A DNA stretch of 64,000 nt from Parcubacteria group bacterium LiPW_15. Lineage in GTDB: Bacteria > Patescibacteriota > Minisyncoccia > UBA6257 > 2-01-FULL-56-20. The notes under the pieces were generated by a model. The model was not told where the DNA came from, made no database searches, and was given only the letters and a program-made list of their open reading frames with translations. Positions 8,134 to 40,260 of the stretch are shown in pieces. The translations under genes and the position numbers were made by a program. The stretch is taken from NCBI GenBank assembly GCA_007375645.1, contig VMER01000001.1, positions 273,211-337,210 of the forward strand, in the 5' to 3' direction. Numbering within the stretch: the first letter of the stretch is position 1; each line of letters starts with the position of its first letter.

Positions 8134-8529
8134 TTACTTCTCGATCATCCCCAGCGTCTCCTTAACTTTTCTGACCACATCTTCAATTTTCCAATCGGCC
8201 TTCACTAAATAATAGGAGGGTTCTTCTTCGGAAACTTCCCCGCTTATTTTATCGTTTGCGGAAAGATTCGTAAGAATTATCATGGGGACTTTCTTGCCAT
8301 AATCCGAAGACTGCCTTAGTTCGTGCATCATCTGCAATCCTGTTTTTTTCGGCATTATAAGATCTAGGAGTATCAGATCCGGCTTTTCAGCTAGCGCGAC
8401 CTTAAGTCCGTCCTCCCCATTCTCTGCTCTCAACACGCCGAAACCTTCACCCGCGAATTTATTCGTGAGAGCTTTGAGAACCGATCTTTCATCTTCGACT
8501 ATCAACAATATTTTTTTATCTTCCGCCAT
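8134..8529 (-). CDS. Single-domain response regulator (CheY-like receiver only)
   Basis: LLIVEDE...PDLILLDLIMPKKTG receiver motifs; 131 aa, no output domain. Confidence 0.85.
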   Translation of the reverse strand: MAEDKKILLIVEDERSVLKALTNKFAGEGFGVLRAENGEDGLKVALAEKPDLILLDLIMPKKTGLQMMHELRQSSDYGKKVPMIILTNLSANDKISGEVSEEEPSYYLVKADWKIEDVVRKVKETLGMIEK

Positions 8530-8556: not shown

Positions 8557-11500
8557 TCAGCCATCCAAACTTCTGGCCCCGGTTCTCTGTTTCATGCCGC
8601 TTATGGGGATGGTCACCGAGAAAGTCGTTCCGACATTCTCTTCGGACTCAAAACTAACGGCGCCTCCCGACTTCTCCACGATCTCTTTGACGATATAAAG
8701 TCCGAGCCCCGTGCCGTCTGTTTCTACCGGAATTATATTGTCGGCGCGGAAAAATTTTTCGAACACTCTCTCCTGTTGATTCAACGGTATTCCATATCCA
8801 TTGTCCAAAACCTTCACCACTACATCACGCTCCGTTTTAGAAATAAAAATTGATATTTTCCCTCCGTCCGGAGTGTATTTAACGGAATTGGAGATTAAAT
8901 TCTGAAGTATCATGCGCGTCAGATTCGGGTCGATGTTTATCAATTTTGGCACATCTTCGGAATAATTACTGACAACAACTTGGTTTTTTGTTAAAATTTT
9001 TGGCTCCAGCTCTTTTATGACCGAATTCGCGATATCCCGAATATCTGTTGGTTTAGGTTCGATAGCAAAAGTCCCGAGCTCGATACGCGACACATTGAGG
9101 AGCGCGCCCACCAATTCGGCCATCCGGCGCGAAGAGGCATAGATCTCGGAAGCATAATCTTTCTGTTTATCATTCAAAGCTCCGGCGTCGCCCCCTAAGA
9201 GCATTTCCGCATACCAATTAATGGCGGAAAGCGGAGTGCGAAGTTGATGAGAAGCCAGAGAAACAAATTCACTTTTCGAGCGATCTATCTCCTCCGCTTT
9301 GGTGATGTCGCGCTCAACGCCGACGAAAAAGATAATATTTCCATCCTCGCTCAAAATGGGACTGATGCTGAACTCCGAAAGATACGTTTCCCCGCTCTTT
9401 CGCCTATTGGTAACCTTGCCGGTGAAAGATTTTTTCTCGGTCTTAATCACGCGCCACATGTTGGTATAAAATTCTTTCGGCATTTGACCGCCCCATAAAG
9501 CCGGTGTTTTACCGATCATCTCTTTCGCCGAATATCCCGTCGTCCTTTCGGCGCCGCGATTCACGTAAATAATCTTGGCATCCGGGTCGGTAATAATAAT
9601 GTGGTCAGAGGCATTGTCGACCGCGCGCTTGAATTGCTGCAGTTCTGCAGCGGTATGTTCCAATTCTGTGAAAACCCTCTCCTTTTCCGCCTTAGTGCGA
9701 ATGCTTGCGATACTGAAAGCTAAGTCGCCCGCAAGCTCTTCGAGCATTTTCACCTCCGCAGAGTTAAAAAGATCGGCTGCTGCAGAATAGATGTTTAGAG
9801 CTCCAAAGACACGCCCCTCTAAGAGAAGCGGCACAACTGCGCTACCCACATAGCCCAACGCCCTGGCCTCTTTAAACCAAGGACCAAAATTCGGATCTTT
9901 GGAAAAATCCGGGTCTATGACAACTCGCTTCTCACGAATAGCCGTACCGGTTGGTCCCCTGCCGCGCTCCGTATCCGCCCAGCTTATATTCAGCTTTTCT
10001 ATATAACCATCGGTGTGTCCGGCCCAAGCCATAGGACGAACGGATTTGTTTTCATCATTTTCCGCATATCCGACCCACGCCATTCTATAGCCGGCGTTTT
10101 TAACAAGTATATTGCAAACATCTTTGAGGAGCTTGTCTTCGCTTGTGGCTTGAACCGCAACCTGGTTGGCTTCGCTTATGGTCATGAGCGCCCGATTCAG
10201 ATTCTGCGATTCCTCGGTCTGCTCCCGAAGCGCGGCGTCGGCCCTTCTCCGTTCGGTTATGTCCCGAAAGATACCCAAGACAAACTTTTTATCACCTATC
10301 GTTACCGGAGAAGAAGTGATGTCGGCATAAAAAATACCTCCGTCCTTTCTTTTGATCGGAATGTCCCTCGCGACGTCAACCTCTTTCCTGAGCAGTTTTT
10401 CAAATTGATCGAGTACGTGCGAAACAGCTTCGTCGGGATGAATATCGTTTATCCATAATTTTCTTATTTCGTCCGGACTAAACCCAAGCATCTTTGAAAA
10501 CGCTCCGTTGCTGTCGGAAAACTTCTTGTTTTCCAGATCCGCCAACACCATTCCGTCGCTCGCGTTATCAAATACGATTTTAAATCGCTCTTCTGCATAT
10601 GCCTTCAACTGCTCCTCGATCTTCTTGCGCTCGGTAATATCCCGAACAAGAGCGTGAAGAAAAGACTTTTTTCCGTAGTCCACCCGCGAGAGCAGCACCT
10701 CCGCCGGAAAATCTTGTCCATCTATCCTTCGGTGCGTCCATTCAAAGAAATTGTGCCCCTCGCGCATCGCCTGCTCGATCATTTCTTTGGCCTTCGCCAT
10801 GGATGGGCGCCCATCCGGCTGAGCTTCCGGTGATAATTTCCACGGCTCATATGACATAAATTCCTTCTCATCCTTCGCTTTAAACATCTCTACCGTCGCC
10901 GGGTTCCCGGAAGTAAAATTCCAGGTCGGGGGCTCCAAAGTCATAACCGCGTCCCGCGAAGAGAGAAAGAGAGTTCTATATCGATTCTCGCTGGCCCTCA
11001 CCAGTTCCTCTTCCATCTCGCGCAGATCTGCCGTCATCTTGTTCGCGATCTTAACCGCCCTGACTCTGGACTCCATCAAAAGATAAACGGCAGCGGCTAC
11101 AAGAAGCGCGATAAGCAAACCTCCGAAAAGCAAAAGCCGCGGCCCCAATCGAACATCCATATAAGCATCAAAGGCCGGAGTTGAATAAAAACCCAGCGTC
11201 CAAGTCCGGTTGCCGATGACATAGGGGCGATAAGCCACAAATCTCGGCGCATAGCCGGCCGTCTGCTTCAATAGCGGATTGGATTCATATGTCGCCGATG
11301 AAGAAGTTGCGCTGCCGCTCTCATATGCGCTTACTTCTACATAACCTTCGGGATAGGACGGAAGGATAGAGCTAAGCAGTGCTTGTGTATCAAAAACCAA
11401 AACCGCGTAGCCCTTAAGCGCCGCCCGCCTTTCTTCCACTGTATTGCGCGACAGGTTCTTTCCATAAATTGCCTTAAACACTATTACGCCGTTCCCGTTT

Positions 11501-12051
11501 ATAAAATTAACCTTAAAATCTTCGGTGGAAGTTATTATATCCTTATCCCTGGCTTCCAGCATGTCCGGAACCGAAACCTGGCCTTCGGCGATATCGAAGC
11601 CTATGGCCAGAGCGGTACTCGTCGTCACCGGCACAACGTATTTTATTGGCAGATATTCGTCCTTATCTTTTTCCGGAAAAATTTTGAAGTTCGGATACCC
11701 GTCCGGGAAAATGGCTTCGTCCTTTCGGATCGTGCTTATAAACTCGGGAAGCCCCGCCTTAGGCACTCTTTCTACATACGCGAACGCGCGCACCGCCGGA
11801 TTGTTTAGAGCTCCCACATCGTTCGCGAAAGTGGCCCATTCGCTCCTCGTGACGTCTTCGCTGGCGCTAAAAAGCTCCTGCACCGAGAAAAGCATGTTTC
11901 GGTAGAGCAATTGAAAACTCTCAACTTGGCGCAGTCTATCAAGCTGCTCGCTTTCGAATATATTATTAAATTCCGTTTGCGTGCTCGCGTTAAGCTGCGC
12001 GTAAAAAACCAAGGCTGCGGAACAAAACGCGGCGAAAACCAAAACGGACAC
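8557..12051 (-). CDS. Multi-sensor histidine kinase, 1164 aa: N-terminal ~300-aa extracytoplasmic domain between two TMs, then PAS/GAF/PAS modules, HisKA and HATPase_c
   Basis: H-box SHQLRTPLSAINWYAEML; G-boxes DNGYGIP and GTGLGL; TM LLLFGGLLIALLVAAAVYLL around residue 310. Confidence 0.85.
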   Translation of the reverse strand: MSVLVFAAFCSAALVFYAQLNASTQTEFNNIFESEQLDRLRQVESFQLLYRNMLFSVQELFSASEDVTRSEWATFANDVGALNNPAVRAFAYVERVPKAGLPEFISTIRKDEAIFPDGYPNFKIFPEKDKDEYLPIKYVVPVTTSTALAIGFDIAEGQVSVPDMLEARDKDIITSTEDFKVNFINGNGVIVFKAIYGKNLSRNTVEERRAALKGYAVLVFDTQALLSSILPSYPEGYVEVSAYESGSATSSSATYESNPLLKQTAGYAPRFVAYRPYVIGNRTWTLGFYSTPAFDAYMDVRLGPRLLLFGGLLIALLVAAAVYLLMESRVRAVKIANKMTADLREMEEELVRASENRYRTLFLSSRDAVMTLEPPTWNFTSGNPATVEMFKAKDEKEFMSYEPWKLSPEAQPDGRPSMAKAKEMIEQAMREGHNFFEWTHRRIDGQDFPAEVLLSRVDYGKKSFLHALVRDITERKKIEEQLKAYAEERFKIVFDNASDGMVLADLENKKFSDSNGAFSKMLGFSPDEIRKLWINDIHPDEAVSHVLDQFEKLLRKEVDVARDIPIKRKDGGIFYADITSSPVTIGDKKFVLGIFRDITERRRADAALREQTEESQNLNRALMTISEANQVAVQATSEDKLLKDVCNILVKNAGYRMAWVGYAENDENKSVRPMAWAGHTDGYIEKLNISWADTERGRGPTGTAIREKRVVIDPDFSKDPNFGPWFKEARALGYVGSAVVPLLLEGRVFGALNIYSAAADLFNSAEVKMLEELAGDLAFSIASIRTKAEKERVFTELEHTAAELQQFKRAVDNASDHIIITDPDAKIIYVNRGAERTTGYSAKEMIGKTPALWGGQMPKEFYTNMWRVIKTEKKSFTGKVTNRRKSGETYLSEFSISPILSEDGNIIFFVGVERDITKAEEIDRSKSEFVSLASHQLRTPLSAINWYAEMLLGGDAGALNDKQKDYASEIYASSRRMAELVGALLNVSRIELGTFAIEPKPTDIRDIANSVIKELEPKILTKNQVVVSNYSEDVPKLINIDPNLTRMILQNLISNSVKYTPDGGKISIFISKTERDVVVKVLDNGYGIPLNQQERVFEKFFRADNIIPVETDGTGLGLYIVKEIVEKSGGAVSFESEENVGTTFSVTIPISGMKQRTGARSLDG

Positions 12052-12125: not shown

Positions 12126-12497
12126 TTATTTTATTTCCGTTAGCACGCTTTTAACTTTCTCCACGATCTCGTTTATCGGGTGCTGACTCTTAACAAAATA
12201 GTCTGCGGCGCCAAGCGTTAACGCCTTTTTTATGTCGCTATCTTCTCCAAGATTGGAGACGACCACGATTGGTATCAGCTTCATTCCCGCATCCTCCTTG
12301 ATCTCCTCCAAAACAAGAAAGCCGTTCTTTTTGGGCAACACCAAATCCAAGACTATGACGTCCGGCTTGCCATCCCGCGCCATAGTTATAGCCACCTCTC
12401 CGTCGGAAGCCACTAGGCATTCAAACCCGGAACGCTCGAACTTTTCCTTTAGAACCTTGGAAAGAACTGCTTCGTCTTCGACGATTAAAATTTTCAT
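12126..12497 (-). CDS. Single-domain response regulator (receiver only)
   Basis: MKILIVEDE...PDVIVLDLVLPKKNG...ADYFVKS. Confidence 0.85.
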   Translation of the reverse strand: MKILIVEDEAVLSKVLKEKFERSGFECLVASDGEVAITMARDGKPDVIVLDLVLPKKNGFLVLEEIKEDAGMKLIPIVVVSNLGEDSDIKKALTLGAADYFVKSQHPINEIVEKVKSVLTEIK

Positions 12498-12572: not shown

Positions 12573-14306
12573 TTAATCCTGCATTTCCTCCACATTTTCG
12601 GACATATAACGCTTCATTTTCTCGAGATTATCCCGCATCCGCTTGAGATAAAATTCGATTTCTTTGGCCTCAGACTCGTTTATCTTTTCGTCGCTGTAGT
12701 CGTCCAGCATTTTGTCTATGTCCTTTCGGAGTGAATTGAAAATAACGGAAATGTCCCGCTGGGCTATGACCACCTTCCTCCCCCGCTGTTCCTTGGCCAG
12801 TTTTTGCGTAAAATATCCGGCGAAGAAGCCGCCGATCAAAAGAAGCAAAAGAAAGACCGCCAATGTTCCCGAAGTTATTTCCAATCCGAAAATAATAAAG
12901 AGCGGTCTGGGGCGTACGCTAAAATCCGTTTTGATCGGAAAACTCGTAGCGCCGCGCGCGTCTTTGGCCAAGATTTCCAAATAATAGGCTCCCGCCTTTC
13001 GGGGTAGGTCAAAAGTAGCGCTCCAGTTTCCATTGGCATCCGGAATCGGATCCGCGTTCGCAATAAGGTCCCCGTTTTTACCCTCCATGGAGATAGACGG
13101 CGTTGTCCCCGTCGCCGCCGAACCGTTTATCTGAAGCGGACCTTCACCCAAATATGTGTCTTTGGTTATAAAGGTCACGGTTGGTCCGGCTATCGGCACC
13201 ACGTTCAAAGTAATATTATTCTCGGCCGCGTTCCCCGCTTTATCGATCGCCCGCACCAAAACGGTGTGCTCACCCGGCGCCTGAACGGGCAGCGTGTAAG
13301 AAGTCGATGTGGATACGAACAGTTCCTTGCCGTCAACGCGTATCTCGTAATGATCTATACCCGAAAGCGCGTCTTGTGTTTCGTAAAATATTTTTGGAGT
13401 CGGATTATCGCTCGACACATTATCCGCCTTAAGTTTAAACGGCAAAGGTGAGGCGGTATCGATAGATATTCCGTAATACGCGGCCGGCCCCCAGCCCTTG
13501 AGATTTTGGAATTGTACTCGCGCGTACCAAATTCCGTCATCCAAAACGCCCAGATCTTTTCCGTTAACAAGCTCCCGTTCCGGCGTGCCGGTTTCGGATG
13601 TTTTTGCGCGCACGACCCGAGCGGAAACATCCGTAATATCCGCCGGAACATCCCAGAAAACGACGGTGTCCCCAACCTGGCTATACCATTTGGTTTCATC
13701 CGGATACAAAGGAATCCTGAGTTTCGGTGCCGCCGGTAAACCGGTAGCCGGCGCTGGCGCCCTGCTGATCACCGCCGGTTGTTCCTGCGCGGATTGTCCC
13801 GACGGAGTTACGGAAACGGCTACACCGACGCCGATTGTTCCGTTTTGGATCCCGTCCAAAATGTTGGTGCCCTTCCCGTCGTTTGAAGTTATCGCGGCAT
13901 CGGAAGCGGATATCACGGCGGAGCCGGAGCCCACCGCTTTAAAATTAATGGTTAAAACCGAAAGGGCCGCTCCGGAAATGCCGGCGGTAGTCCCTCCGAT
14001 AAATTTTATTGTCCCATCGCTATTCGAAATATTCGGCCCGTCCAGCCAAAATCCGAATGCACTGTTTTTTGTGTCAAAACTTGTCGCCTGCAGTTTATCC
14101 GGCGGAAAGCTGATGGTCGCTTGCGCCGCGTTAATCGAGGCGCTGGAACTGTTGATTCTTACATACACCGTTATCTGATCCCCTCGACGGACCGTGCCGC
14201 TCGCCGGAATAATAGAAAGCGTCGCCGCGGACGCCGCTGAGACGCAAAACATCGCCCAAAGCGACAAAACTACAGTTACGCCAGTTAAATATTTTTTAAT
14301 TTTCAT
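12573..14306 (-). CDS. Secreted cell-surface protein with N-terminal cohesin-like domain, beta-rich repeats, a C-terminal TM anchor and a charged cytoplasmic tail
   Basis: Signal peptide; residues ~28-170 (TLSIIPASGTVRRGDQITVYVRI...ISFPPDKL...GTIKFIGGT...LSVLTINFKAVGSG) match the cohesin beta-sandwich pattern; TM IIFGLEITSGTLAVFLLLLLIGGFFAGYF near the C-terminus. Confidence 0.55.
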   Translation of the reverse strand: MKIKKYLTGVTVVLSLWAMFCVSAASAATLSIIPASGTVRRGDQITVYVRINSSSASINAAQATISFPPDKLQATSFDTKNSAFGFWLDGPNISNSDGTIKFIGGTTAGISGAALSVLTINFKAVGSGSAVISASDAAITSNDGKGTNILDGIQNGTIGVGVAVSVTPSGQSAQEQPAVISRAPAPATGLPAAPKLRIPLYPDETKWYSQVGDTVVFWDVPADITDVSARVVRAKTSETGTPERELVNGKDLGVLDDGIWYARVQFQNLKGWGPAAYYGISIDTASPLPFKLKADNVSSDNPTPKIFYETQDALSGIDHYEIRVDGKELFVSTSTSYTLPVQAPGEHTVLVRAIDKAGNAAENNITLNVVPIAGPTVTFITKDTYLGEGPLQINGSAATGTTPSISMEGKNGDLIANADPIPDANGNWSATFDLPRKAGAYYLEILAKDARGATSFPIKTDFSVRPRPLFIIFGLEITSGTLAVFLLLLLIGGFFAGYFTQKLAKEQRGRKVVIAQRDISVIFNSLRKDIDKMLDDYSDEKINESEAKEIEFYLKRMRDNLEKMKRYMSENVEEMQD

Positions 14307-14354
14307 TTTATTTAGTTATCAAGAATATATGGTTATTATAGCAGACGGCCTTTT

Positions 14355-17225
14355 TTATTGGGAATTTCTTGCTTGCTGGAATGCGTTTAGAAATATGCTG
14401 AAATCTATGATGTCTATTTTGCCGTCGCGATTAAAATCGATGGTCCCCCGCGTTTTCTTGTCCTCGGTGCGCCATCGGGAAAGAAAAATACTCCAATCCG
14501 AAATAGTTGCCGATTGATCCCCGTTCAGATCAACAACGGATTTCGCTTCTGTTGTGAGATTGAAGGTTTTTTGAAGTGATGGATCGCTTGTTTTTCCGGA
14601 AAATATTTCTTTGGCGTAAACCGAATGGGAGCCCAATGAAAGCCCCGTACTCGTCGCCGCAAAAGTATAATATCCGGAAGAATCCGGTTTCGTACTGCCA
14701 ACCGTCTTCCCGTCGACAAATAAACTGACTGTCGCTCCGGGAATGGCGTAACCATTCAAAAATATCGGACTTTTGCTCCCGATCACGCTCGAATCAAGCA
14801 CCAATGTTGGCGGGAGAATTATGTCTTTGATCGTCCAATCGACGCCTGCGACCGCAAGCTGAGCAAAAGAAATTATCGCCGTGGAATTATTGTTCTTATC
14901 TTTGGCTTGTATGGCAAAGAAATAATCTGCCTGCAAAAAGTTTTCGAGCGAGACTTCAAAACTTCCGTTATTGGCGATAGTTACGGTTTTGAAAGGAACG
15001 CTTGCGTATACTCCGCTCACGGAACTCTTGGTAAAAATTTGTATGTCCGCGCCGGGATACGCGTAACCGTAAAAATGAGCATTGGCCGGACCGTAGCCGC
15101 TTAGATTCACCGGCGGCGCGGAAGAACTCGGCTGCGGACTGGTTCCGGAAGAAACCGTAACCGTGGCGACCGCAGTATCGGAACCGGCGACATTGGTACA
15201 AGTGAGCGTATAAGCGCTGGTCGTTTGCGGCTGAGTCGTGGTCGCGGTTCCGATTATGCCGCCCGAACCGATAGTCGCGTTACCGGGGTCGGTGATCGCG
15301 CAAGTGGTAGCCGCGCCGATAGCGCTCCAGGTGAAAGTTATCGTTTGTGACTCGCCGATCGATACGCTCGAAGGAGACGCATCGAAACTCTGTATGGTCG
15401 GAGCAACCGGGGCGCTTGATACCGTAAGCGTTTGCGCATTGGAAGTTCCTCCGCCCGGAGTCGGATTAAATACCGTTATCGATCTGGTTCCGGCCGAAGA
15501 AATATCTGAGGCGAGAATGTTGGCCGAAAGCTGGGTTGAAGATGCAAATGTCGTCGTTCGATTTGATCCCCCTATCCGCACAACAGAATCACCATCGAAT
15601 CCGGAACCGTTTACGATTAAAGAGAAACCGGATCCGCCTGCGGCAACCGTAGTCGGAGAAATAGAGGTTGTAACCGGCGCGGCATGTGTCGGCGAAAAAG
15701 GCGAACCGGACGGAACAACGCCTGCCGCATAATTCCCGCTCGTATCACGGCTCAAGAGTTTGTAATGATAGTTCGTGCCTCCGGTAAGTCCGGAGTCTGT
15801 GCATCCCGTGCCCGGAGACGCGGTTACGCAAGCGACGATTGAGGCTCCGATTGAATTGCCGACGGTGTATACGGTTCCCTCGACAGGCGTATCGGTTACT
15901 GCGCTTGTGGAACGCAAGGCGACAATGCTGTGTAGATCGGCGTCTCCCGGATTTGTCCAAGAAAGAGAAACTTGGGCGACACCCGCCGTGCCGGAAGCTC
16001 CGGTCACATCCGCTGGCGACTGATTATCAACGGTAATTGTGGCCGAAGAAGCGTCGGATCCCGCCTGCGAATTGGTGCCGGTAAAAGAAGTTACTGTGCC
16101 GGTTACGGAATAAGCGGAACCGGGAACTGCGGGCATATTGGCGTGGCTTTTCGGAGTGATTCTCACCTTGAACTGAACCGGGCTTGTGGAAACCGGGATG
16201 CCGCAACCGGAAAGCGCCACCGTATTTGAAACCGGATCGTTCTCTGAACAATAAGTCGTTGCTCCGTCGTTTGAAGTGATTGCGACTGAAGACAAACTGC
16301 TTGTGGTGTTTGCTCCGAGCGTTACGGTCGCGGCAGTCACGGTATCGCTGCCGTCCGTAGTTTGGAGAGTGAAAGAGTCCAGATCCGTAGCCGAAGCTCC
16401 GGGAGCGATCGTGGCGTTAGAAGGATCTGTGCCGTTGGCAAGCGTGGTAACCGGCGGCTGAAGCGAAATTGTCATCATACCTTTTACGGTGGCAGTAGCA
16501 AAAGTTACAGTCGTTGTTGAGTAAGCGCCCGCTGTCGCTTTTTGGCCATCGAAGACCGTTAGGCCTCCGCCGTCACCGGTACCGGTTTCCGCGTTAACTC
16601 GCACAGCAGAGATGTTTGCCAAACTGGAATTCACAACCGTAGCAATCGGAGTGTCGGCAGCAGTCGCGCCGGCCCCGACAATCACAACAAGACGATCCGG
16701 ACCGATTGTGGTTGCTCCCGCAATATCCCCGGACACATCACTCGTGGCGTCGACAGAACCAGATGTAACGTCCCATGGATTTCCCGTGGTTACGACACCT
16801 CTATAAGCGCAAATGGATCCACCTTGGTGGTTTCCGGAATCGGAAGTTGTGGGATCGCCTTGAGTGCCGTTATACCGCGACCAAAAAACGGTAAGCGTGA
16901 CTGCGCCACTGGGAGACTGCGGAGAACCGGAAACTTCGGTCCACGTTCCCCCGTTTCCGTTAGCGATAGTGATTGCTTGACCCGATGTTTCTAAAAATAG
17001 CAGTAGAATATCATTGGCCGCGATACCTGCAGGTAAGACTGGTGTGATTGCTGCAGCGGCGCCCGCGGCGGCACCGCAGCCGACAAAGGTTGGGATTGCG
17101 GCGTTGGCGGACGGTATCCCCCAGATCAGACCGGAAAATCCGCCGGTCAAAAAGACTGCGCAAAAAAATACAACAAATAGAAATTTGCTGGTTGAGCTAG
17201 TCGAATTTTTTTTCTCTTTTTTCAT
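14355..17225 (-). CDS. Large secreted Thr/Ser/Gly-rich surface protein with C-terminal type-I dockerin (two Ca-binding repeats)
   Basis: C-terminal DLNGDQSATISD and DFNRDGKIDIID match the dockerin DxNxDGxIxxxD loops. Start chosen at MKKEKK (17225) just before the signal peptide; the ORF track extends to 17297. Confidence 0.65.
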   Translation of the reverse strand: MKKEKKNSTSSTSKFLFVVFFCAVFLTGGFSGLIWGIPSANAAIPTFVGCGAAAGAAAAITPVLPAGIAANDILLLFLETSGQAITIANGNGGTWTEVSGSPQSPSGAVTLTVFWSRYNGTQGDPTTSDSGNHQGGSICAYRGVVTTGNPWDVTSGSVDATSDVSGDIAGATTIGPDRLVVIVGAGATAADTPIATVVNSSLANISAVRVNAETGTGDGGGLTVFDGQKATAGAYSTTTVTFATATVKGMMTISLQPPVTTLANGTDPSNATIAPGASATDLDSFTLQTTDGSDTVTAATVTLGANTTSSLSSVAITSNDGATTYCSENDPVSNTVALSGCGIPVSTSPVQFKVRITPKSHANMPAVPGSAYSVTGTVTSFTGTNSQAGSDASSATITVDNQSPADVTGASGTAGVAQVSLSWTNPGDADLHSIVALRSTSAVTDTPVEGTVYTVGNSIGASIVACVTASPGTGCTDSGLTGGTNYHYKLLSRDTSGNYAAGVVPSGSPFSPTHAAPVTTSISPTTVAAGGSGFSLIVNGSGFDGDSVVRIGGSNRTTTFASSTQLSANILASDISSAGTRSITVFNPTPGGGTSNAQTLTVSSAPVAPTIQSFDASPSSVSIGESQTITFTWSAIGAATTCAITDPGNATIGSGGIIGTATTTQPQTTSAYTLTCTNVAGSDTAVATVTVSSGTSPQPSSSAPPVNLSGYGPANAHFYGYAYPGADIQIFTKSSVSGVYASVPFKTVTIANNGSFEVSLENFLQADYFFAIQAKDKNNNSTAIISFAQLAVAGVDWTIKDIILPPTLVLDSSVIGSKSPIFLNGYAIPGATVSLFVDGKTVGSTKPDSSGYYTFAATSTGLSLGSHSVYAKEIFSGKTSDPSLQKTFNLTTEAKSVVDLNGDQSATISDWSIFLSRWRTEDKKTRGTIDFNRDGKIDIIDFSIFLNAFQQARNSQ

Positions 17226-17456: not shown

Positions 17457-17819
17457 TTACAGTATCTCTACAGTCGCTCCGGCTTCCTCAAGTTTCTTCT
17501 TGAGCTCGTCGGCTTCTTCCTTCTTCAAGCCTTCTTTGACCATCTTCGGAGCGCCATCAACCAAGTCCTTCGCCTCCTTGAGGCCAAGACCGGTCACTTC
17601 GCGCACAACCTTGATGACATTGAGCTTCATATCGCCCGCAGCTTTCAAGTTAACGTTGAAAGAGGTCTTCTCTTCGGCGGCAACGGCAGGACCGGCGGCG
17701 GCCACAGGGGCGGCGGCGGAAATGCCAAACTTCTCTTCCATTGCCTTTACGAGCTCAACGAGTTCGCCGACGGACAATTTTTCTACTTCGGAAATTATGC
17801 TGTTGAATTTATCGGACAT
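17457..17819 (-). CDS. rplL: 50S ribosomal protein L7/L12
   Basis: 120 aa; Ala-rich hinge and C-terminal [12 protein letters not shown]...EAGA.VE. Confidence 0.95.
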
Positions 17820-17850: not shown

Positions 17851-18366
17851 TTAAGCTTTCTTAGATTTCTCTACCATCAAATACATAAAGGATTTGATAG
17901 GCGCGATGAACATTCCAAGGACCATAGAAAGCGCGACTTCTCTTGGCGGCAATTGGCCGTAGAAAAGTATCATCTCTCTCGTGGCCATTTCTTTCTTTGC
18001 AAGATCCAATCCGCCCAAGATCTTCGTCATCGCCGCGGCTTTGGCTTCTTTGTCTTCGCCGAGCGAACTGAAAAACTTGTAAACGGCAGAGCTCGCGGTC
18101 TCAAGACCGTTTCCGGAGAAAACTGTTCCCAGCGATCCGGCAAACTGCTTGGAGTCGAACTCGATTCCCTTCTCCTTTAAAGCCACGCCCAAAAGACGTT
18201 TCTTTAAAACGAGCATGGAATTTCCCGCGGCGCGAACTGCGCGGCGCAGGTTTCGAAGGTCTTCCGCGGAAACTTTATTGAAGTCCACGAAAACCAAGGC
18301 ATCGCTCTTTTTAAGGAGTTCCTTCGCTTCACCGACTTCCACTTCTTTTTGTGCTTTTGTTTTCAT
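17851..18366 (-). CDS. rplJ: 50S ribosomal protein L10
   Basis: 171 aa, typical L10 N-terminus; immediately upstream of rplL. Confidence 0.9.
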   Translation of the reverse strand: MKTKAQKEVEVGEAKELLKKSDALVFVDFNKVSAEDLRNLRRAVRAAGNSMLVLKKRLLGVALKEKGIEFDSKQFAGSLGTVFSGNGLETASSAVYKFFSSLGEDKEAKAAAMTKILGGLDLAKKEMATREMILFYGQLPPREVALSMVLGMFIAPIKSFMYLMVEKSKKA

Positions 18367-18843: not shown

Positions 18844-19074
18844 TTATCCGACCACCTCCGCGCTATAGCCGAGTTTCTTTATTATCTCCACTATTTTCTC
18901 GGGCGAAACCAGTTTTTCGTCAAAAGTCACTTCGGCCTCTGATTTCGCAAAGCTTGCCTTCACTTTTTTTACTCCCGGAGTGTCTTCCAACTCCCCCTCT
19001 ATATTCATAATGCAGCTCGTACAATGAAGCCCCTGGAGATTTAATTTAATTGTTTTGATATTTTCTTCTGTCAT
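18844..19074 (-). CDS. copZ: Copper chaperone CopZ (heavy-metal-associated domain)
   Basis: GLHCTSC = GMxCxxC metal-binding motif; 76 aa. Confidence 0.85.
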   Translation of the reverse strand: MTEENIKTIKLNLQGLHCTSCIMNIEGELEDTPGVKKVKASFAKSEAEVTFDEKLVSPEKIVEIIKKLGYSAEVVG

Positions 19075-19088
19075 ATTTTTTGGTTTTT

Positions 19089-19116
19089 CTATCCACCATT
19101 CTCTATCTACTATCTA
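19089..19116. repeat. Four tandem heptamers CTATC(C/T)A immediately upstream of copZ
   Basis: ctatcca ccattct ctatcta ctatcta. Confidence 0.65.
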
Positions 19117-19131
19117 CCGGCAATTATTGTC

Positions 19132-20196
19132 TTACTGGACAATAATTGTGCCTCTATACATCCCCATCGAACACATAAAAGGAATTGTGGTCGGTTTGTC
19201 GGGCGCGGTAAATTCCAAAGTTTGCGAAGTCCCTGGCGGCACGGAAGCGCGGAGATTCAAGCTCGGAATAACAAAGCTCTGCGCACAGCTATAGCCATCG
19301 TCATTTTTTAAAGTTATTTTAACTTTCTCCCCCGCTCCGACGTAAAGCGTCTTCGGACTATAACCATAAGAATTAATAGCAATGGTGGGATTATTGTTGG
19401 TTTCGTTATTGAAACCAGACCCATTATTTGCAGGTCCGTAGTTATCACCCGGTACAGGTTCCACAAAATAATTCGGCTTATTTAAAGATTCCCAGACGCT
19501 CACAAAGTTCGGCACTCCCGCCAAGGCCAGCGCTCCATTCAAACTGAATAGCGCCAGAAAGATTATTGCCACCGCCGCGAACTTATAGAACTTTTTCTGC
19601 ATCGAGTCTCCCATCTTGGTCACGAAATATCCCAGGATGAAAAACAAGGGCGTGGTTCCCAAAATGAAGGCAAAGAGGATTGCCATTCCGGAAAATGCTT
19701 TACCGGAAGAGATCGCGAGAGCCATCATCGCCTGCGTCGTCCCGCACGGGATAAATATGGTAAGCGCTCCCAAGATTGCCGGAGCGAAGATGGATTTTGA
19801 CTTGGCCTGGCTCCTCAGCCTTCGGGTCAAGAACCTGGGCGGTTGGATAATAAAATAGCGGAAAATGGGATGCAGGTTTAACAAATTTCCCGCAGTGCCC
19901 AGCATGAAGATGATTACCGCAAATTGTAAAGCCACGCTTGCGCCAACCGACAACTCCAAGGCCGATCCCAAAAGTCCCAGAAGAAGTCCTAATATAGTGT
20001 AAGCAACGAGCTTCGCGCTCAAGAACCAGAGGATAGGCATGGCCCCGGGGCGTTTTTTCTCGCCGTGTCCATCCCCTTCCTGCTGTTCCTCTTCCTCCTG
20101 CGCCATCGCGGTGGCCAAAAGCCCGCCTTGTACGGCAAGGCAGGTCAATCCCCCGGTTAGAAGTCCTGTTCCAAAAATTACAAATAGGTTTGGCAT
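19132..20196 (-). CDS. Membrane protein with a DsbD_2-like Cys-containing TM domain plus C-terminal cupredoxin-like domain (probable copper handling)
   Basis: TM Cys motifs GGLTCLAVQGG and IFIPCGTTQAMM; Glu/His-rich loop; C-terminal LYVGAGEKVKITLKNDDG...FMCSMGMYRGTIIV resembles cupredoxin_1. Confidence 0.55.
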   Translation of the reverse strand: MPNLFVIFGTGLLTGGLTCLAVQGGLLATAMAQEEEEQQEGDGHGEKKRPGAMPILWFLSAKLVAYTILGLLLGLLGSALELSVGASVALQFAVIIFMLGTAGNLLNLHPIFRYFIIQPPRFLTRRLRSQAKSKSIFAPAILGALTIFIPCGTTQAMMALAISSGKAFSGMAILFAFILGTTPLFFILGYFVTKMGDSMQKKFYKFAAVAIIFLALFSLNGALALAGVPNFVSVWESLNKPNYFVEPVPGDNYGPANNGSGFNNETNNNPTIAINSYGYSPKTLYVGAGEKVKITLKNDDGYSCAQSFVIPSLNLRASVPPGTSQTLEFTAPDKPTTIPFMCSMGMYRGTIIVQ

Positions 20197-20219
20197 TGGA
20201 TTAGCTTAATTGTTTTTTA

Positions 20220-21314
20220 TTATTTTAAATTAAATGAGGTTTTGGCTTGTTTGCTTCTAGAGTAAAACGGATGGCCGGTCTTTAATGCTTTCATCATTTT
20301 CTCGGTATCGGATGGCAGATCTATCAAAAATCTTTTTGTCACACCCAGCATGTATTTCTCGTGATCCCGATATGTTCTCGCCTTCCCGTAGGACGCTGAA
20401 AGACCCTTAAAACCGTAACCCTTTCCAAAAACTTTTTTGAATATCCAAATTGCCCGCTCCATATGATAATCGGACGTTATGAGCCAAATCTTTCCCTTGA
20501 CCTTCATTTTCTCGACTATCTGCTTTGAAAATACTGCGTTGCCGATCGTATCTTTGGATTTTTCTTCCAAGATAATATTTTTCTCCGATATTCCGTTCTT
20601 CAGCAGATAATTTCTCATTGCCCCGGCCTCGGTTATGGGCGGTTTCTTTTTTAGCGAACCGTTAAACCCTCCGCTCAAGATAACCTCAAAAGGAGAAAGT
20701 TTACCCGAAACTTTCAAAAATAGATCCAACCGTTCTTTGCCGCCTCTGATCGGTTTGCCGGCATGGCTGACCCCTCCTCCGAGAACTATTACGATATTCT
20801 TCGGACCGCTGTTTTTATTAACATCCACATAGTATCGCCTTATCATCCTGCCCTTGTTCATTAATTTGTCTTTGAGAACTCCACCGTTGGCCTCGATTAT
20901 TTTCCAAGAACCGACGTTGTCGTCATCGCAAGTGATAAGCGCCTTTTTAATACCCATCTTTTTTATCTTCTTTAAGGCCAGCGCCAGGATCTTTGTTCCG
21001 TATCCTCTTTTGCGCTTCGAAGGACGGATTCCGTAGCCGACATGCCCGCCCTCTTTTGTAAGCTTTGCGTTTAGCCTGTGCCGAATAGTGGTCTCCCCGA
21101 TAAACCGATTCCCATCCATCATCCAGTAGCTCGTGCACGGCACGTACCCTTTTTTGAGATATTTGTTGCTGTACATTTTAAGAAGATAGGTCTTAAAATC
21201 CCGCTCCATTTCTTGGATTCTCTTCTCTGTCGTCTCGCCTTTCCGCGTGGATTCCCGCTCGCTCGCGAGATATTCTTTCTTATATTTAATTGTCGGCTTG
21301 ATCAGGCGAAGCAT
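20220..21314 (-). CDS. Fusion protein: N-terminal GNAT acetyltransferase domain + C-terminal DUF218 (YdcF/ElyC-like) domain
   Basis: GNAT: HVGYGIRPSKRKRGYGTKILALAL. DUF218: IVIVLGGG...ILSGG...SKDTIGNAVFS...LITSDYHMERA. Confidence 0.65.
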   Translation of the reverse strand: MLRLIKPTIKYKKEYLASERESTRKGETTEKRIQEMERDFKTYLLKMYSNKYLKKGYVPCTSYWMMDGNRFIGETTIRHRLNAKLTKEGGHVGYGIRPSKRKRGYGTKILALALKKIKKMGIKKALITCDDDNVGSWKIIEANGGVLKDKLMNKGRMIRRYYVDVNKNSGPKNIVIVLGGGVSHAGKPIRGGKERLDLFLKVSGKLSPFEVILSGGFNGSLKKKPPITEAGAMRNYLLKNGISEKNIILEEKSKDTIGNAVFSKQIVEKMKVKGKIWLITSDYHMERAIWIFKKVFGKGYGFKGLSASYGKARTYRDHEKYMLGVTKRFLIDLPSDTEKMMKALKTGHPFYSRSKQAKTSFNLK

Positions 21315-21316
21315 AT

Positions 21317-23656
21317 TTATAGTTTTATTCTTTTTAGCCTTAGCGAATTGGCGACCACAGAGATAGAACTCATGGCCATCGCGGCGGAGGCGAATATGGG
21401 GCTTAAGAGTATCTCGAAAAATGGATACAAAGCGCCCATCGCCACGGGGATAAGGACTATATTATAACCGAACGCCCAGAAAAGATTGCCTCTAATTATT
21501 CCCATCGTCCGGCGGGAAAGCTTGATAACATTCGCGACCGAATCCAAATTCTTATTAACCAAGGTGATATTCGCCGCTTCAATTGCTACATCCGTACCCG
21601 TACCCATCGCGAGACCTACGTTCGCGGCCGCGAGAGCCGGAGCGTCGTTTATTCCGTCCCCTACCATCGCCACAATCTTTCCTTCTGCCTGAAGTTTTTT
21701 AATTATCGCTTCTTTTTCTGTGGGCAGCACTTCCGAAATTATCCGTTCTATCCCAAGCTCTTTGCCGATAGCTTCTGCCGTGCGTTTATTGTCTCCGGTA
21801 AGCATCACAGTCTCTACTCCCATTTGTCGGAGTTTTTCTATCGCCTCCTTCGCGCTCGCTTTCGGCCGGTCGGAAACCGCAACAAGTCCTATAAGAGATT
21901 TATTGAGCGCCAAATACATCACGGTTTTTCCTCCTCGTTCCAATTTATCCGCAATTTCGGTTGCCGAGATGGACTCCTTGTCCGCCGATGAAACGGAAAC
22001 CCCCAGTTCATCCATTAACTTTTTATTCCCGAAATATATATTCCTCCCTCCATGAGTCGCCTGAACGCCTTTCCCCGGAATAGCCCTGAATCCCTCAAGC
22101 CGCGAGAGAGCAAAACTTTTGGGTAACGTATTTTCAGCATGTTTCACTATCGCCTCGGCCAAGGAATGCTCTGAACCCTTCTCGATCGCGGCGGCCAATT
22201 CCAAAACCTGATTCTCAGTCATCCCAAACCCGACTATATCCGTGACCTCGGGCTTCCCTTCGGTAAGTGTGCCGGTCTTATCAAAAACGATTGCGTTTAC
22301 TTTGTGCGCGGTCTCCAGGCTCTCCGCGTCTTTAATTAAGATTCCATGTTCCGCACCAAGCCCCGTGCCCACCATGATTGCCGTAGGCGTCGCGAGTCCC
22401 ATAGCGCAAGGACAAGCGATGATAAGGACTGCCACGGCGTTTAAAATGGCGAGCAAGAGCCCCGCCTGCCCTGAGCTTGTCGAAGGGCCCAGGTCATACC
22501 ACAAAACGAACGTTAATATAGAGAGCATTATGACTATCGGCACGAAATACGAGGAAATTGTGTCGGCAATGCGCTGAATCGGCGCCTTGCTCCCCTGCGC
22601 TTCCTCTACCAGTTTAATAATTTGCGCGAGCATGGTATCCGCGCCAATCTTCTCCGCGCGAAAAAGAAAGCTGCCGGTTTTATTTACGGTCGCACCGATG
22701 ACTTTACTTCCCACGGATTTGTCCGAAGGAATGCTCTCGCCCGTGACCATAGATTCATCAATAGATGATTCCCCTTCTATAATTACGCCGTCCACAGGGA
22801 TCTTTTCGCCGGGACGCACGCGGATAATATCGCCGATCTTTACTTGTTCCACCGGTATGTCTGTTTCTTGTGGAACAACCCCATGGGAACCGAAAGGTTT
22901 CCCATCGGGGTAATACAAAACTCTCGCCGTCTTTGCCTGAAGCCCGATAAGCTTCTTTATAGCTTCCGAAGTTCCCGCTTTGGCCCGAGCCTCGAAATAA
23001 CGCCCAAGGAGTATGAGACCGATAACTAAGGTGGAAACATCGAAATACGGCATTGCTTCCACTCCGGCAGAAGTTATGATGCCTGGAAAAAATACCGCAA
23101 AAACGGAATACAAAAAGGCCACGCTTGTGCCGATGGCCACAAGTGAGTCCATATTTGCACTTCTGTGTCTTAGCGCCCTGCCCGTAGCCTTATAGAATCC
23201 CCAAGCCGCCCAAAACTGCACGGGAATGGCCAGCGCCAACTGCACATAAACATTTTTTAATATCTCCGGCGCGAAATTCACAAGCCCCGGAAAACTACCC
23301 CAAAGAATGAGTGCGCCGGCAACCAAGGCAACGCAGGTGCGGTTCAATAGATCTCTTTGCGCCTTTTGTTTTTCTTTTTTAATATCCCCTTCGTGCATGC
23401 TGGCGTCTTCGAGCATCGCCTCGTAGCCGACGTTCGAAACAGCCGACAAAATATCCGTGTCTTTGACCTTAAGGGCGTCATACGAAACCGTGGCTTTCTC
23501 GGTCGCCAAGTTTACGACAGCCGAGTTTACCCCGGGCACCTTTCTAAGCGACCGCTCGATAGTAGAGACGCACGAAGCGCAATGCATGCCTTTTATCGGA
23601 TATGTTTTCCGCGCCAGCGCCCCGTTAGAAGTTTTATCGGTCATCGGTTTATCCAT
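21317..23656 (-). CDS. copA: Copper-translocating P1B-type ATPase
   Basis: N-terminal HMA GMHCASC; CPC motif [11 protein letters not shown]; DKTGTLT phosphorylation site; GDGINDAP. Confidence 0.92.
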
Positions 23657-23900: not shown

Positions 23901-24165
23901 TGTTTTTAAGTATCTCCGCCAACTCTTTTACCGCTTTCTCCCCTTCTCCTCTTTTAATCATACCAGCCGCGCAAGTTTTTAAATGATTCTCCAAAAGCAC
24001 CTCGTCGGTCGCCCGGAGGGCCTTCTGCACCGCCTGGGACTGCAAAATAACGTCTATGCAGTAGGCGCCGGATTCCACCATATCTATAACCTTCTTCAGA
24101 TGCCCCAAAGAGATCTTATATCTGTGCTCAATCCTCTCTTTGCTGGTCGCGGGTTTAAATGTCAT
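23893..24165 (-). CDS. csoR: CsoR/RcnR-family copper-sensing transcriptional repressor
   Basis: GHLKKV...YCIDVILQSQAV..AL matches the CsoR C-H-C metal site region. Start set at MTFKP (24165); the ORF-track extension to 24294 is rejected. Confidence 0.75.
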   Translation of the reverse strand: MTFKPATSKERIEHRYKISLGHLKKVIDMVESGAYCIDVILQSQAVQKALRATDEVLLENHLKTCAAGMIKRGEGEKAVKELAEILKNSR

Positions 24166-24175
24166 AAAACCAGTA

Positions 24176-24196
24176 TATCCCCCCATGGGGGATATG
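24176..24196. promoter_or_regulatory. Putative CsoR operator: G/C-tract pseudo-palindrome ATATCCCCCC-ATG-GGGGATAT just upstream of csoR
   Basis: Seen directly; known CsoR operators are ATACCC..GGGTAT-type G-tract palindromes. Confidence 0.55.
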
Positions 24197-24207
24197 TAAA
24201 GCGCCTG

Positions 24208-24321
24208 CTTTGTGCATATCTTTGATACGCAAACAAAGCCAGTGCCGAGTACTCGCGGCGTCCCGTTTTGTGCAAATCTTTGATTCGCAAACAAGAACGC
24301 AATCCCGAGTATTCCCTCGGG
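24208..24321. repeat. Imperfect tandem direct repeat, 2 x ~57 bp (tttgtgca.atctttgat.cgcaaacaa...cgagta.tc), in the csoR leader
   Basis: Copy 1 at 24208-24265, copy 2 at 24266-24321, about 75% identical. Confidence 0.7.
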
Positions 24322-24484
24322 AGGCTGCAGAAACTATTGCTCGGGGACGGCAATCCCGCTCCAGCGGCAAAATTGCCTATATTCCAACCCGCGAATCCCC
24401 CGTCGGGGAACCTATCTTCGCGGATTTCCATAATCCCCTATGCAATTAGTTTCCTCCGCGAGGCAGAGACTATAAAACGCTCAA

Positions 24485-24988
24485 TTATTCTCTAATCGAA
24501 ATTAGGCGCCCTTGCTCCGGTTCAAGTTCAATACGAAAAAGATATTGGTAGCCATAACGTTTTTTCATGTCAATCAACTTTAGTTCATCTATTCTCCTAT
24601 TCTTTCGATTCCAGTGACCCTTCACCTCAATAGCCACCAAATTATTTTCTGGCGAATTTCTTTCCCCGCGATCTGGTGTCCGCCGGTGGATGATTATATC
24701 TGGGAATATACTATCCCCACCAGAATTCTTCTTTGTAACTTGACCGTCTCGGTTATATTCGATATCAACATTCCAAGTTTTAAAATATGGTTTTAGATAG
24801 TTGGTTAGATGTGCGGAAATGGATTCCTCTTCGGCCTCAACCCTTATCAAGCCAAAATCATCTTTGTATAAGTTTGATAATGCCTGCGTTATGCACATCG
24901 CTATCTCTGCCTCGGTCATAGGATGAATACAAAATATTATTTTATTTAAAATTTCTGCGTAGCAGGTACAAATTCCGTCCAAAAACAA
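24485..24988 (-). CDS. Small PD-(D/E)xK (restriction-endonuclease-fold) nuclease; candidate effector of the ATPase operon
   Basis: Motif ...VDIEYNRDG...SIFPDIIIHRR(x19)LVAIEVKGHW = E ... PD ... EVK. 14 nt downstream of the ATPase gene. TTG start at 24988 (alternative ATG at 24919). Confidence 0.55.
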   Translation of the reverse strand: MFLDGICTCYAEILNKIIFCIHPMTEAEIAMCITQALSNLYKDDFGLIRVEAEEESISAHLTNYLKPYFKTWNVDIEYNRDGQVTKKNSGGDSIFPDIIIHRRTPDRGERNSPENNLVAIEVKGHWNRKNRRIDELKLIDMKKRYGYQYLFRIELEPEQGRLISIRE

Positions 24989-25002
24989 AGTTGAAATTAT
25001 AT

Positions 25003-26760: not shown

Positions 26761-27002
26761 TTTTTCTTTAAAATATGAGGGCTTTTAAACAGTATGAGGT
26801 CGTTCATGAATAAAAACGTAACAGCATAAAGCATGGTTCTAAAGTTAAGTCCTCCGAGCTGCTTCCTTATTGTGGAATACAAATCAAAAATCGTAATGCT
26901 ATGCTTTTTATTAAGTAATTTCAATATCAAAAAACCCGTATACACGCTAGACGAGCGCACATCTTGTTCGGAAGATATCAGCAGGTTATTCTCGAGTTTC
27001 AT
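26757..27002 (-). CDS. 81-aa hypothetical protein, translationally coupled (ATGA overlaps on both sides)
   Basis: ORF with 4-nt overlaps at both ends; no recognisable motif. Confidence 0.5.
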   Translation of the reverse strand: MKLENNLLISSEQDVRSSSVYTGFLILKLLNKKHSITIFDLYSTIRKQLGGLNFRTMLYAVTFLFMNDLILFKSPHILKKK

Positions 27003-27535: not shown

Positions 27536-27713
27536 GGGAGTCGCTTTTTACAGAGTTTTCAGAAATTACATTTAAAGCGCTGTCTCCCTTAGACTGTTGT
27601 TTATTGACCTGCTTATTCTTCTGGCTCCTGACTGTGATGTGAGCGGTAATGCCCCCGCTAATTGCTCCGACAATCACGCTGATAATTAGATTCCAAATAT
27701 CCAAATTTTGCAT
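27519..27713 (-). CDS. 64-aa single-TM peptide, first gene of the operon
   Basis: MQNLDIWNLIISVIVGAISGGITAHI TM followed by a polar basic tail; ATG start. Confidence 0.4.
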   Translation of the reverse strand: MQNLDIWNLIISVIVGAISGGITAHITVRSQKNKQVNKQQSKGDSALNVISENSVKSDSHERGN

Positions 27714-27730
27714 ACATTAATTAAAGTCCA

Positions 27731-27748
27731 AATAGACTATGAAGTCTA
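27731..27748. promoter_or_regulatory. Perfect inverted repeat ATAGACT-atga-AGTCTAT in the divergent promoter region between the operon and the 27862 gene (candidate operator)
   Basis: Seen directly; 7-bp arms, 4-bp spacer. Confidence 0.4.
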
Positions 27749-40258: not shown

Positions 40259-40260
40259 AT

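Follow-up and report, generated by a model that had tools for sequence, protein, structure and literature searches.

A cohesin-dockerin gene pair that recurs beside signalling genes across Parcubacteria and probably builds an exchangeable cell surface

The stretch of DNA analyzed here, referred to as the window, comprises 64,000 nucleotides of contig VMER01000001.1 from LiPW_15, a metagenome-assembled genome of the Parcubacteria, within the candidate phyla radiation (CPR, or Patescibacteria). Two adjacent genes in the window are the subject of this report: gene A, which encodes a membrane-anchored protein with a cohesin domain (the anchor), and gene B, which encodes a secreted protein with a dockerin at its end (the payload). 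An earlier note on this DNA had placed the two side by side, at 12573-14306 and 14355-17225, and this holds; it had also given the order as A then B, which has to be reversed. Both genes lie on the minus strand and in the same frame, and B is transcribed first, followed after a 48-nucleotide gap by A. The start of B is the ATG of MKKEKK, with a GTG at 17297 as a possible alternative start upstream, and the B protein is 100% identical to GenBank entry TSC60441.1 (P0121). Dozens of related genomes have this pair as well, next to signalling genes, and for this reason the pair probably builds an exchangeable outer surface of the cells. The features of the two genes are as follows (aa, amino acids; Ig, immunoglobulin).

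14355-17225, minus strand: gene B, dockerin-tailed secreted payload, 956 aa; open reading frame (ORF), annotated in GenBank TSC60441.1 as 'fibronectin type III'
17100-17225, minus strand: B signal peptide, aa 1-42, Sec-type, with a K-rich n-region, a hydrophobic core and the cleavage motif A-N-A (AXA at 40-42)
15690-17099, minus strand: B variable head, made of an N-domain (aa 43-255) and a module (aa 256-512)
15420-15680, minus strand: B choice-of-anchor Z repeat (CoaZ_rpt_PGGG), aa 516-602; NCBIfam NF058597, 97.9 bits against a cutoff of 30
14538-15083, minus strand: B pre-dockerin cassette of two Ig-like domains, aa 715-896, abutting the dockerin in an X-module-like position
14358-14537, minus strand: B dockerin, aa 897-956, two EF-hand-like Ca2+ loops with helices
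12573-14306, minus strand: gene A, membrane-anchored cohesin anchor, 577 aa; ORF, annotated in GenBank TSC60440.1 as 'Uncharacterized protein'
14226-14306, minus strand: A signal peptide, aa 1-27
13827-14225, minus strand: A cohesin domain, aa 28-160, from Pfam Cohesin, the domain model and Foldseek
13722-13826, minus strand: A Pro-rich linker, aa 161-195, of low confidence in the AlphaFold2 model
12873-13721, minus strand: A stalk of three beta-sandwich/Ig-like domains, aa 196-285, 290-370 (Big_13) and 375-478, from AlphaFold2 secondary structure and confidence scores
12576-12866, minus strand: A transmembrane helix, aa 481-499, and predicted cytoplasmic helical-hairpin tail, aa 500-577; model helices 479-539 and 544-576

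When hidden Markov models (HMMs) of the two families were run over the whole window, they returned a single dockerin (E 1.3e-27) and a single cohesin (E 1.8e-53), which lie next to each other. That the sole dockerin and the sole cohesin of the window should be neighbors is far beyond chance.

The assignment of the A domain as a cohesin relies on both sequence and structure. Pfam Cohesin (PF00963) matches A over aa 38-158 with 34.5 bits, against a gathering score of 24.1 (E 2.9e-8), and covers model positions 10-137 of 139; it also matches 11 of 20 diverse members of the anchor family at E < 0.01. A full-length model of A was created with AlphaFold2 from an 87-sequence alignment, with a mean predicted local distance difference test score (pLDDT) of 90.1, and in it aa 28-160 form a beta-sandwich of 9-10 strands. 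A Foldseek search with the whole model returned tandem Ig/FN3 proteins only, and aa 24-170 were therefore modeled alone (AlphaFold2, pLDDT 94.7). The best 50 matches of this domain model in the PDB are cohesins, 50 out of 50, with template-modeling (TM) scores of 0.70-0.76 and root-mean-square deviations (rmsd) of 2.5-3 Å; the top one is 6kgf_C (E 7.9e-10, TM-score 0.74, rmsd 2.6 Å). The better fits are to type I cohesins (C. acetobutylicum CohA2, C. cellulolyticum, P. cellulosolvens ScaB) and to the non-cellulosomal cohesin of A. fulgidus, and the domain is nearer to type I than to types II and III (TMt 0.70-0.76 vs 0.53-0.60). A profile of the full anchor, searched against PDB sequences, gave one marginal cohesin match only (5aoz, E 0.04).

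Beyond the cohesin, the stalk domains of A also have relatives. Big_13 is matched by Pfam in A and in all 20 diverse family members, and aa 385-462 resemble the Ig domains of SiiE and BapA in a profile search against PDB sequences. Signal peptides are found in both proteins and a transmembrane helix in A only. Neither an SLH domain nor an LPXTG sortase signal is matched in A by Pfam or NCBIfam; its C-terminus consists of the transmembrane helix and the hairpin. The earlier note had proposed a cohesin fold at residues ~28-170 and a C-terminal transmembrane anchor, and both are recovered here, the latter as a modeled helix at ~481-499. What it had described as repeats after the cohesin are, in the model, Ig-like domains and not sequence repeats.

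The C-terminus of B was assessed against the usual definition of a dockerin, that is, two tandem segments of ~22 residues, each with an EF-hand-like Ca2+ loop followed by a helix. The two loops of B are D899-L-N-G-D-Q-S-A-T-I-S-D910 and D930-F-N-R-D-G-K-I-D-I-I-D941 (DLNGDQSATISD, DFNRDGKIDIID), and each is followed by a W/F-S-I-F-L helix. The predicted Ca2+ ligands, at loop positions 1, 3, 5, 9 and 12, are D899, N901, D903, T907 and D910 in the first loop, and D930, N932, D934, D938 and D941 in the second. In an alignment of 38 tails from related genomes, positions 1 and 12 are Asp without exception in both repeats, and conservation at position 5 reaches at least 90%, so that, to judge from the residues, a Ca2+-binding geometry is present. 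Pfam Dockerin_1 (PF00404) matches the 72-aa tail of B taken alone with 27.8 bits, above the gathering score of 22.9, as well as 37 of the 38 family tails and 40 of 44 payloads. A profile of the tail alignment retrieves dockerins first from the PDB (2y3n_B at 7.9e-9, then 4fl4_A, 2yik and 1daq). At the recognition positions 10-11, B has I-S and I-I, and the family has a hydrophobic residue followed by a variable one, instead of the Ser-Thr pair of C. thermocellum type I dockerins; that pair is a feature of species specificity and does not define dockerins. With 956 aa, a signal peptide, 26.9% Ser plus Thr and an isoelectric point (pI) of 4.66, B is also the long, Thr/Ser-rich secreted protein with a two-repeat dockerin that had been claimed from the sequence. 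The choice-of-anchor Z class to which its repeat belongs is named for its co-occurrence with alternative C-terminal anchors. The N-domain of the head (aa 43-255) has no match in Pfam, NCBIfam or PDB sequences.

To place this pair in its lineage, 80 loci from species-representative Patescibacteria genomes were fetched and their ORFs called. The family of A is conserved at full length across the Parcubacteria, including Azam-, Falkow-, Nealson-, Niyogi-, Yonath-, Wolfe-, Staskawicz-, Colwell-, Yanofsky-, Lloyd- and Magasanikbacteria and others. Among 1.84 billion cluster representatives, the anchor profile has 6201 matches at E <= 1e-30, giant tandem-Ig proteins included; the best 150 of these 6201 all reach at least 580 bits and are mostly proteins of 560-610 aa matched in a single stretch. 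In ~75 of the 80 loci, the anchor gene is immediately preceded by a same-strand gene, mostly at a distance of 0-50 nucleotides, whose product ends in this two-repeat dockerin. A survey of ORFs with the family HMMs, locus by locus, found exactly one dockerin ORF in 82 loci and exactly one cohesin ORF in 81. Departures from this one-to-one rule occur where anchor paralogues stand in tandem (L080, L082, L084), where the pair is doubled (L081), and where the locus contains runs of N. The patterns for related loci were drawn from an alignment of 8 sequences; one of 20 sequences had no usable conserved stretch.

Some of these loci show variants of the arrangement. The tandem arrays, at L080:1202-7445, L082:48-3052 and L084:2793-5283, contain two to four shorter paralogues of the anchor family, and L081:8319-19885 holds two complete dockerin-cohesin pairs ~8 kb apart. 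Four anchors of 866-901 aa (P0252, P0259, P0279 and P0302) have an N-terminal extension of ~300 aa and match the anchor profile in three stretches; by this pattern they may be two-cohesin versions. The 2391-aa payload at L012:2653-9828 has a C-terminus in which the dockerin is apparently duplicated, with three or four Ca-loop repeats (DLNGDGKFDISDFSIFL ... NWSIFLTLW ... DLNGDGKFDVVDLSIYL).

The two partners differ in how much they are allowed to vary. Anchors are tightly constrained in length, with a median of 577 aa and a 5-95% range of 459-597, whereas complete payloads span 327-3054 aa and one incomplete payload exceeds 3260 aa. The payloads have a median pI of 4.7 and a Ser/Thr content of 24-27%, and 42 of the 50 complete ones begin with an N-terminus similar to the signal peptide of B. 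When 44 payloads were aligned, the only region shared was the last ~240 residues, in which two Ig-like domains abut the dockerin; a homologue search with this 242-aa tail cassette returned 7 short proteins. Besides Dockerin_1, the Pfam content of the 44 payloads consists of Big_6, InlB B-repeat (Flg_new_2), YDG, FN3, TIG, Big_3_5, RTX and beta-helix. Domains of carbohydrate-active enzymes, whether glycoside hydrolases, carbohydrate esterases, polysaccharide lyases or carbohydrate-binding modules (CBM), are found neither in B (Pfam, NCBIfam) nor in the 44 payloads (Pfam), and no other anchoring device, be it a transmembrane segment, LPXTG or SLH, is found in Pfam/NCBIfam scans of B and the 44 payloads.

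Direct comparisons show that the head and the tail follow separate histories. B and the payload of its closest relative, at locus L006, whose anchors are 82% identical, share 74% identity over B aa 599-956, and the first ~600 residues have no detectable similarity. The reverse is seen with the Nealsonbacteria payload P0127, whose neighboring anchor P0019 is ~39% identical to A: here the head is 62% identical to that of B, and the tail 39%. The B module at aa 256-512 (window 15690-16460, ~257 aa) is 55-57% identical to tandem modules in DUF2341 proteins of the Vicinamibacterales (Acidobacteriota), which is unusually high across phyla and suggests, on this identity, a recent lateral transfer of surface-protein modules. 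Because heads are swapped while the tail and the anchor are conserved, the system behaves as a fixed socket and plug with an exchangeable head.

The genes around the pair in the window are listed next.

17851-18366, minus strand: rplJ, ribosomal protein L10, upstream of B
17457-17819, minus strand: rplL, ribosomal protein L7/L12, between rplJ and B
12126-12497, minus strand: receiver 1, a stand-alone response regulator of 123 aa, Pfam Response_reg 79.9 bits, 75 nucleotides downstream of A
8557-12051, minus strand: sensor histidine kinase of 1164 aa with the Pfam architecture CHASE-PAS-GAF-PAS-HisKA-HATPase
8134-8529, minus strand: receiver 2, stand-alone, 131 aa, Pfam Response_reg 63.7 bits
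8093-8118, 3' of receiver 2: terminator-like hairpin, an 11-bp stem followed by a T run, a consensus match only

This two-component neighborhood is also common to the family. In 28 of 68 loci, the anchor gene is directly followed by an orthologous stand-alone receiver of 121-133 aa, with a histidine kinase behind that receiver in 14 of the 68; in 7 others of this set a histidine kinase is itself directly 3' of the anchor. In 23 of 43 loci, a kinase gene is found within the 2.5 kb that precede the payload gene, and in most loci a histidine kinase adjoins the pair on one side or the other. Where at least 3 kb of sequence flanks the pair on each side, a kinase or receiver occurs within 3 kb in 37 of 38 loci. 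The first kilobase beside the pair holds 25 kinases and 37 receivers downstream, and 24 and 29 upstream, compared with 0-2 kinases per kb farther out. A second, smaller cluster of receivers appears 2-5 kb downstream of the pair (9, 13 and 5 per kb), as would be expected if other loci, like the window, had a further receiver past the kinase. The window receivers carry no output domain in Pfam, which suggests that they act through protein-protein contact; the predicted cytoplasmic helical hairpin of the anchor is, speculatively, a candidate for their target. In two Azambacteria loci (L004:481-3603 and L005:483-3548), an extra protein of 1021-1040 aa with no Pfam match is encoded between an upstream histidine kinase and the payload gene, and could belong to the module as well.

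Whether the window genes form one operon was considered from consensus sites. A promoter-like site at 14335-14364 (minus strand; TTCCCA, an 18-nucleotide spacer and TG-TATAAT, a consensus match only) spans the end of B and the B-A spacer, so that separate transcription of A might occur. A scan of the region for promoters and terminators gave counts of sites not above those in shuffled sequence, and the operon boundaries are thus tentative.

From these observations we propose that A and B form a non-cellulosomal cohesin-dockerin pair for surface display, with a probability of roughly 0.75, the binding itself being inferred. A would be exported by the Sec pathway and retained in the membrane by its C-terminal transmembrane helix, so that its one type-I-like cohesin would be presented at the outer end of a stalk, formed by the Pro-rich linker and three Ig-like domains, that would be long enough to span the wall. 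B would be secreted, and its tail cassette of two Ig-like domains and a Ca2+ dockerin would plug into the cohesin of A. B would thereby be held non-covalently at the cell surface with its variable head outermost. Heads would be exchanged by recombination while the tail and the anchor are kept; with these two conserved and the head swapped, lineages could alter the displayed part without altering the device that attaches it. The CHASE-type sensor kinase and the stand-alone receivers would regulate this display or be coupled to it. The most likely role of the complex is attachment or host contact, that is, a variable adhesin or host-contact structure of bacteria of the episymbiont type. We hold this role with lower confidence than the surface complex, since it is drawn from domain content and lifestyle: the adhesin-type domains, together with the shuffling of heads, and the way of life of the CPR.

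The case for a cognate pair, which the earlier note had made from adjacency and which our data strengthen, comes mainly from the strict one-to-one synteny maintained through full turnover of the payload, and in addition from the lack of another anchoring device in the payload scans. The cohesin and the dockerin are, moreover, the least diverged parts of their proteins, with mean p-distances of 0.54 and 0.52, respectively, compared with 0.58-0.73 elsewhere in the two proteins; within the anchor, conservation is greatest in the cohesin, with peaks in strand 3 (NAAQA), the 4-5 loop and the 7-8 loop (DGxGTN). A weak but specific co-divergence of the two modules also speaks for the pair: the partial Mantel correlation between dockerin and cohesin, given the other domains, is 0.095 (p ~0.02), compared with -0.01 for the dockerin and the anchor Ig domains. 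Several results nevertheless weigh against the proposed display pair. This mirror-tree signal is small. Mutual information with average product correction, calculated on 66 pairs, gives top dockerin-cohesin scores that are not above those of the dockerin with control domains. Cohesin conservation shows no significant excess on the canonical 8-3-6-5 face relative to the opposite sheet (2.59 vs 2.30 bits, p = 0.11). In addition, the first dockerin loop of B has Q at position 6 and T at position 9, and Dockerin_1 scores 21.7 bits on the whole of B, just below the gathering score of 22.9. Across the same 66 pairs, R/K at B aa 947 (~14385-14387), the dockerin position that comes after the second helix motif, pairs with D/E at A aa 48 (~14163-14165), the window lineage having N and Y; by this pattern the two could form a salt bridge at the interface, and the pattern traces to a single evolutionary event.

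The main alternative keeps the same coupling between A and B, with the payload as an S-layer or outer coat protein and the anchor as its membrane stalk, in the manner of SlaA and SlaB. We regard this as possible, though clearly the less probable account. It would suit a large, acidic (median pI 4.7), Ser/Thr-rich secreted protein with a fixed anchoring tail and a hypervariable remainder, encoded beside a length-constrained transmembrane stalk, and also the size and spread of the anchor family in the lineage, with its 6201 representatives and giant tandem-Ig proteins. A 2015 cryo-electron microscopy study of ultra-small groundwater CPR cells reportedly saw a periodic surface layer, the proteins of which were not identified, and this too counts for a coat. 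A tenfold range of payload lengths (327-3054 aa) and adhesin-type domains such as YDG, InlB B-repeat, RTX and TIG are, however, better suited to fibers than to a lattice, and a tight linkage to sensor kinases and receivers would be unusual for constitutive S-layer genes. A more far-reaching reading, which we consider improbable, is that payload, anchor, receiver(s) and CHASE kinase, a module of four to five genes, together constitute a principal, previously unrecognized surface-recognition apparatus of the Paceibacteria/Parcubacteria, or the S-layer of CPR cells. As a recognition apparatus, it could shuffle heads among lineages and even gain them from other phyla, by analogy with the receptor-binding cassettes of phages; the anchor hairpin could signal to the receivers, such that contact is sensed from the outside in, or display is switched from the inside out.

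The coupling itself is dispensed with if A and B are independent, co-regulated surface proteins. In that case the dockerin-like tail of B would be a Ca2+-stabilized module for some other ligand, for example a glycan or a different protein, and the beta-sandwich of A a generic adhesin domain. The residue covariation that does not exceed controls and the absence of a significant conservation bias toward the canonical binding face speak for this, and a 2009 survey is said to have found many non-cellulosomal dockerins and cohesins without a known partner. Set against it are the strict one-to-one adjacency in ~75 of 80 loci, spread over many candidate phyla despite full turnover of the rest of the payload, the concentration of conservation in precisely the cohesin and the dockerin, and a payload with no other means of anchoring (transmembrane segment, LPXTG or SLH); independence therefore seems quite unlikely to us. 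Least probable by far is a minimal tether, of the kind seen in cellulosomes or amylosomes, for an enzyme that degrades polysaccharides. The best structural matches of A are cellulosomal type I cohesins, and single-cohesin anchoring proteins do exist in C. thermocellum, namely OlpA and OlpC (4dh2 and 3ul4 among the Foldseek matches), but no glycoside hydrolase, esterase, lyase or CBM family occurs in B or the 44 payloads, each locus has one cohesin and one dockerin, and there is no SLH or sortase anchor. A cellulosome proper is largely refuted by the single cohesin in A and in each of 81 loci, with neither a multi-cohesin scaffoldin nor dockerins borne by carbohydrate-active enzymes; the earlier suspicion that this is no cellulosome thus stands, also in view of the source, a Parcubacteria genome. 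We therefore return to the surface-display pair as the best explanation.

Among characterized systems, OlpA and OlpC of C. thermocellum come closest to the proposed arrangement: one type-I-like cohesin on a wall-spanning protein catches a secreted dockerin protein at the surface (TM-score ~0.7), as A is predicted to do. They differ in being anchored by SLH domains, where A has a C-terminal transmembrane helix and a helical tail predicted to be cytoplasmic; their partners are many carbohydrate-active enzymes encoded elsewhere, where A has one adhesin-like protein encoded immediately upstream; and they lack the two-component link of the present locus. More generally, the anchoring scaffoldins SdbA, OlpA/B/C and ScaE attach to the wall through SLH or LPXTG, neither of which is found in A. 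Non-cellulosomal cohesins and dockerins are known from A. fulgidus and C. perfringens. The A. fulgidus cohesin 2xdh, a cohesin fold outside cellulose degradation, is among the best matches of A (TM-scores 0.71/0.76), but both it and the toxin-complex cohesins of C. perfringens (2jh2, 2vo8, 2w1n) are isolated modules in enzymes or orphan proteins, and none has been described as part of a lineage-wide one-to-one operon with a transmembrane anchor and a head-variable payload. In the X-dockerin pairs (the CipA X-dockerin with type II SdbA, and the R. flavefaciens CttA X-dockerin with type III ScaE), a conserved Ig-like module likewise directly precedes the dockerin, and the dockerin serves cell attachment and not enzyme recruitment, as we propose for B; these pairs use type II or III cohesins, however, whereas that of A is nearer to type I.

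Two further systems are comparable by analogy. The Sulfolobales SlaA/SlaB genes are similar in architecture: they are adjacent, and one encodes an outer protein that is large and variable, the other a stalk of beta-sandwich type that ends in a transmembrane helix. They contain no cohesin or dockerin and have no homology to A or B, and a lattice formed by the present payload would be conjectural. In the LapA-LapG-LapD system of P. fluorescens, a giant adhesin is retained non-covalently and its retention is tied to a cytoplasmic signalling input; the proteins and the envelope are wholly different, no protease or cyclic di-GMP module is seen here, and the coupling at the present locus is suggested by gene neighborhood. 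Closer in phylogeny, the cultivated saccharibacterium Southlakia epibionticum has an essential dockerin-domain envelope protein, SEML1_0315, for which a role in host interaction has been proposed (Wang et al. 2023, PMC10633639). That organism belongs to another class, the Saccharimonadia, and PMC10633639 mentions no cohesin partner; the likeness to B is that of a dockerin in an envelope protein of a Patescibacteria epibiont. Full-text literature searches found neither a published cohesin-dockerin pair in CPR, Parcubacteria or Patescibacteria nor a published identification of CPR S-layer proteins.

The remainder of the window contains a few features unrelated to the pair. A stretch at 24001-28000 has a GC content of 0.40, compared with ~0.48-0.50 elsewhere, and includes an ORF at 25003-26760 (minus strand) for a 585-aa AAA_23 and DUF2326 protein; the stretch is possibly an island gained by horizontal transfer, perhaps with a role in defense. 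Beside the ribosomal genes, at 18844-23656 (minus strand), lies a copper/heavy-metal cluster with an HMA chaperone, a DsbD_2-cupredoxin fusion (354 aa), an acetyltransferase-DUF218 protein and a CopA-type P-type ATPase. An AcrB-type resistance-nodulation-division transporter (1136 aa, ACR_tran 588 bits) and membrane-fusion proteins of the HlyD family are encoded at 36848-41880 and 31237-32697 (minus strand), and such a transporter is worthy of note in a CPR genome, presumed to have no outer membrane.

Taken together, these data describe a new form of a familiar interaction module: it occurs throughout the lineage, its two genes are encoded one-to-one in an operon, a transmembrane helix anchors it, two-component genes accompany it, and its head varies. 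Cohesin-dockerin biology is thereby extended to a form unrelated to polysaccharide degradation, and the family is a possible source of orthogonal cohesin-dockerin pairs for protein engineering. For the organisms themselves, how cells of the CPR/Patescibacteria recognize and hold their hosts or surfaces is a central open question, and to our knowledge almost no Patescibacteria outside the Saccharibacteria are genetically tractable. The module is a concrete candidate for this function, consisting of two small domains whose Ca2+-dependent binding could be measured. The conserved dockerin tail can be used to locate the displayed protein in each genome, the variable heads to predict specificity for host or substrate, and the dedicated sensor kinase may report what triggers the display.

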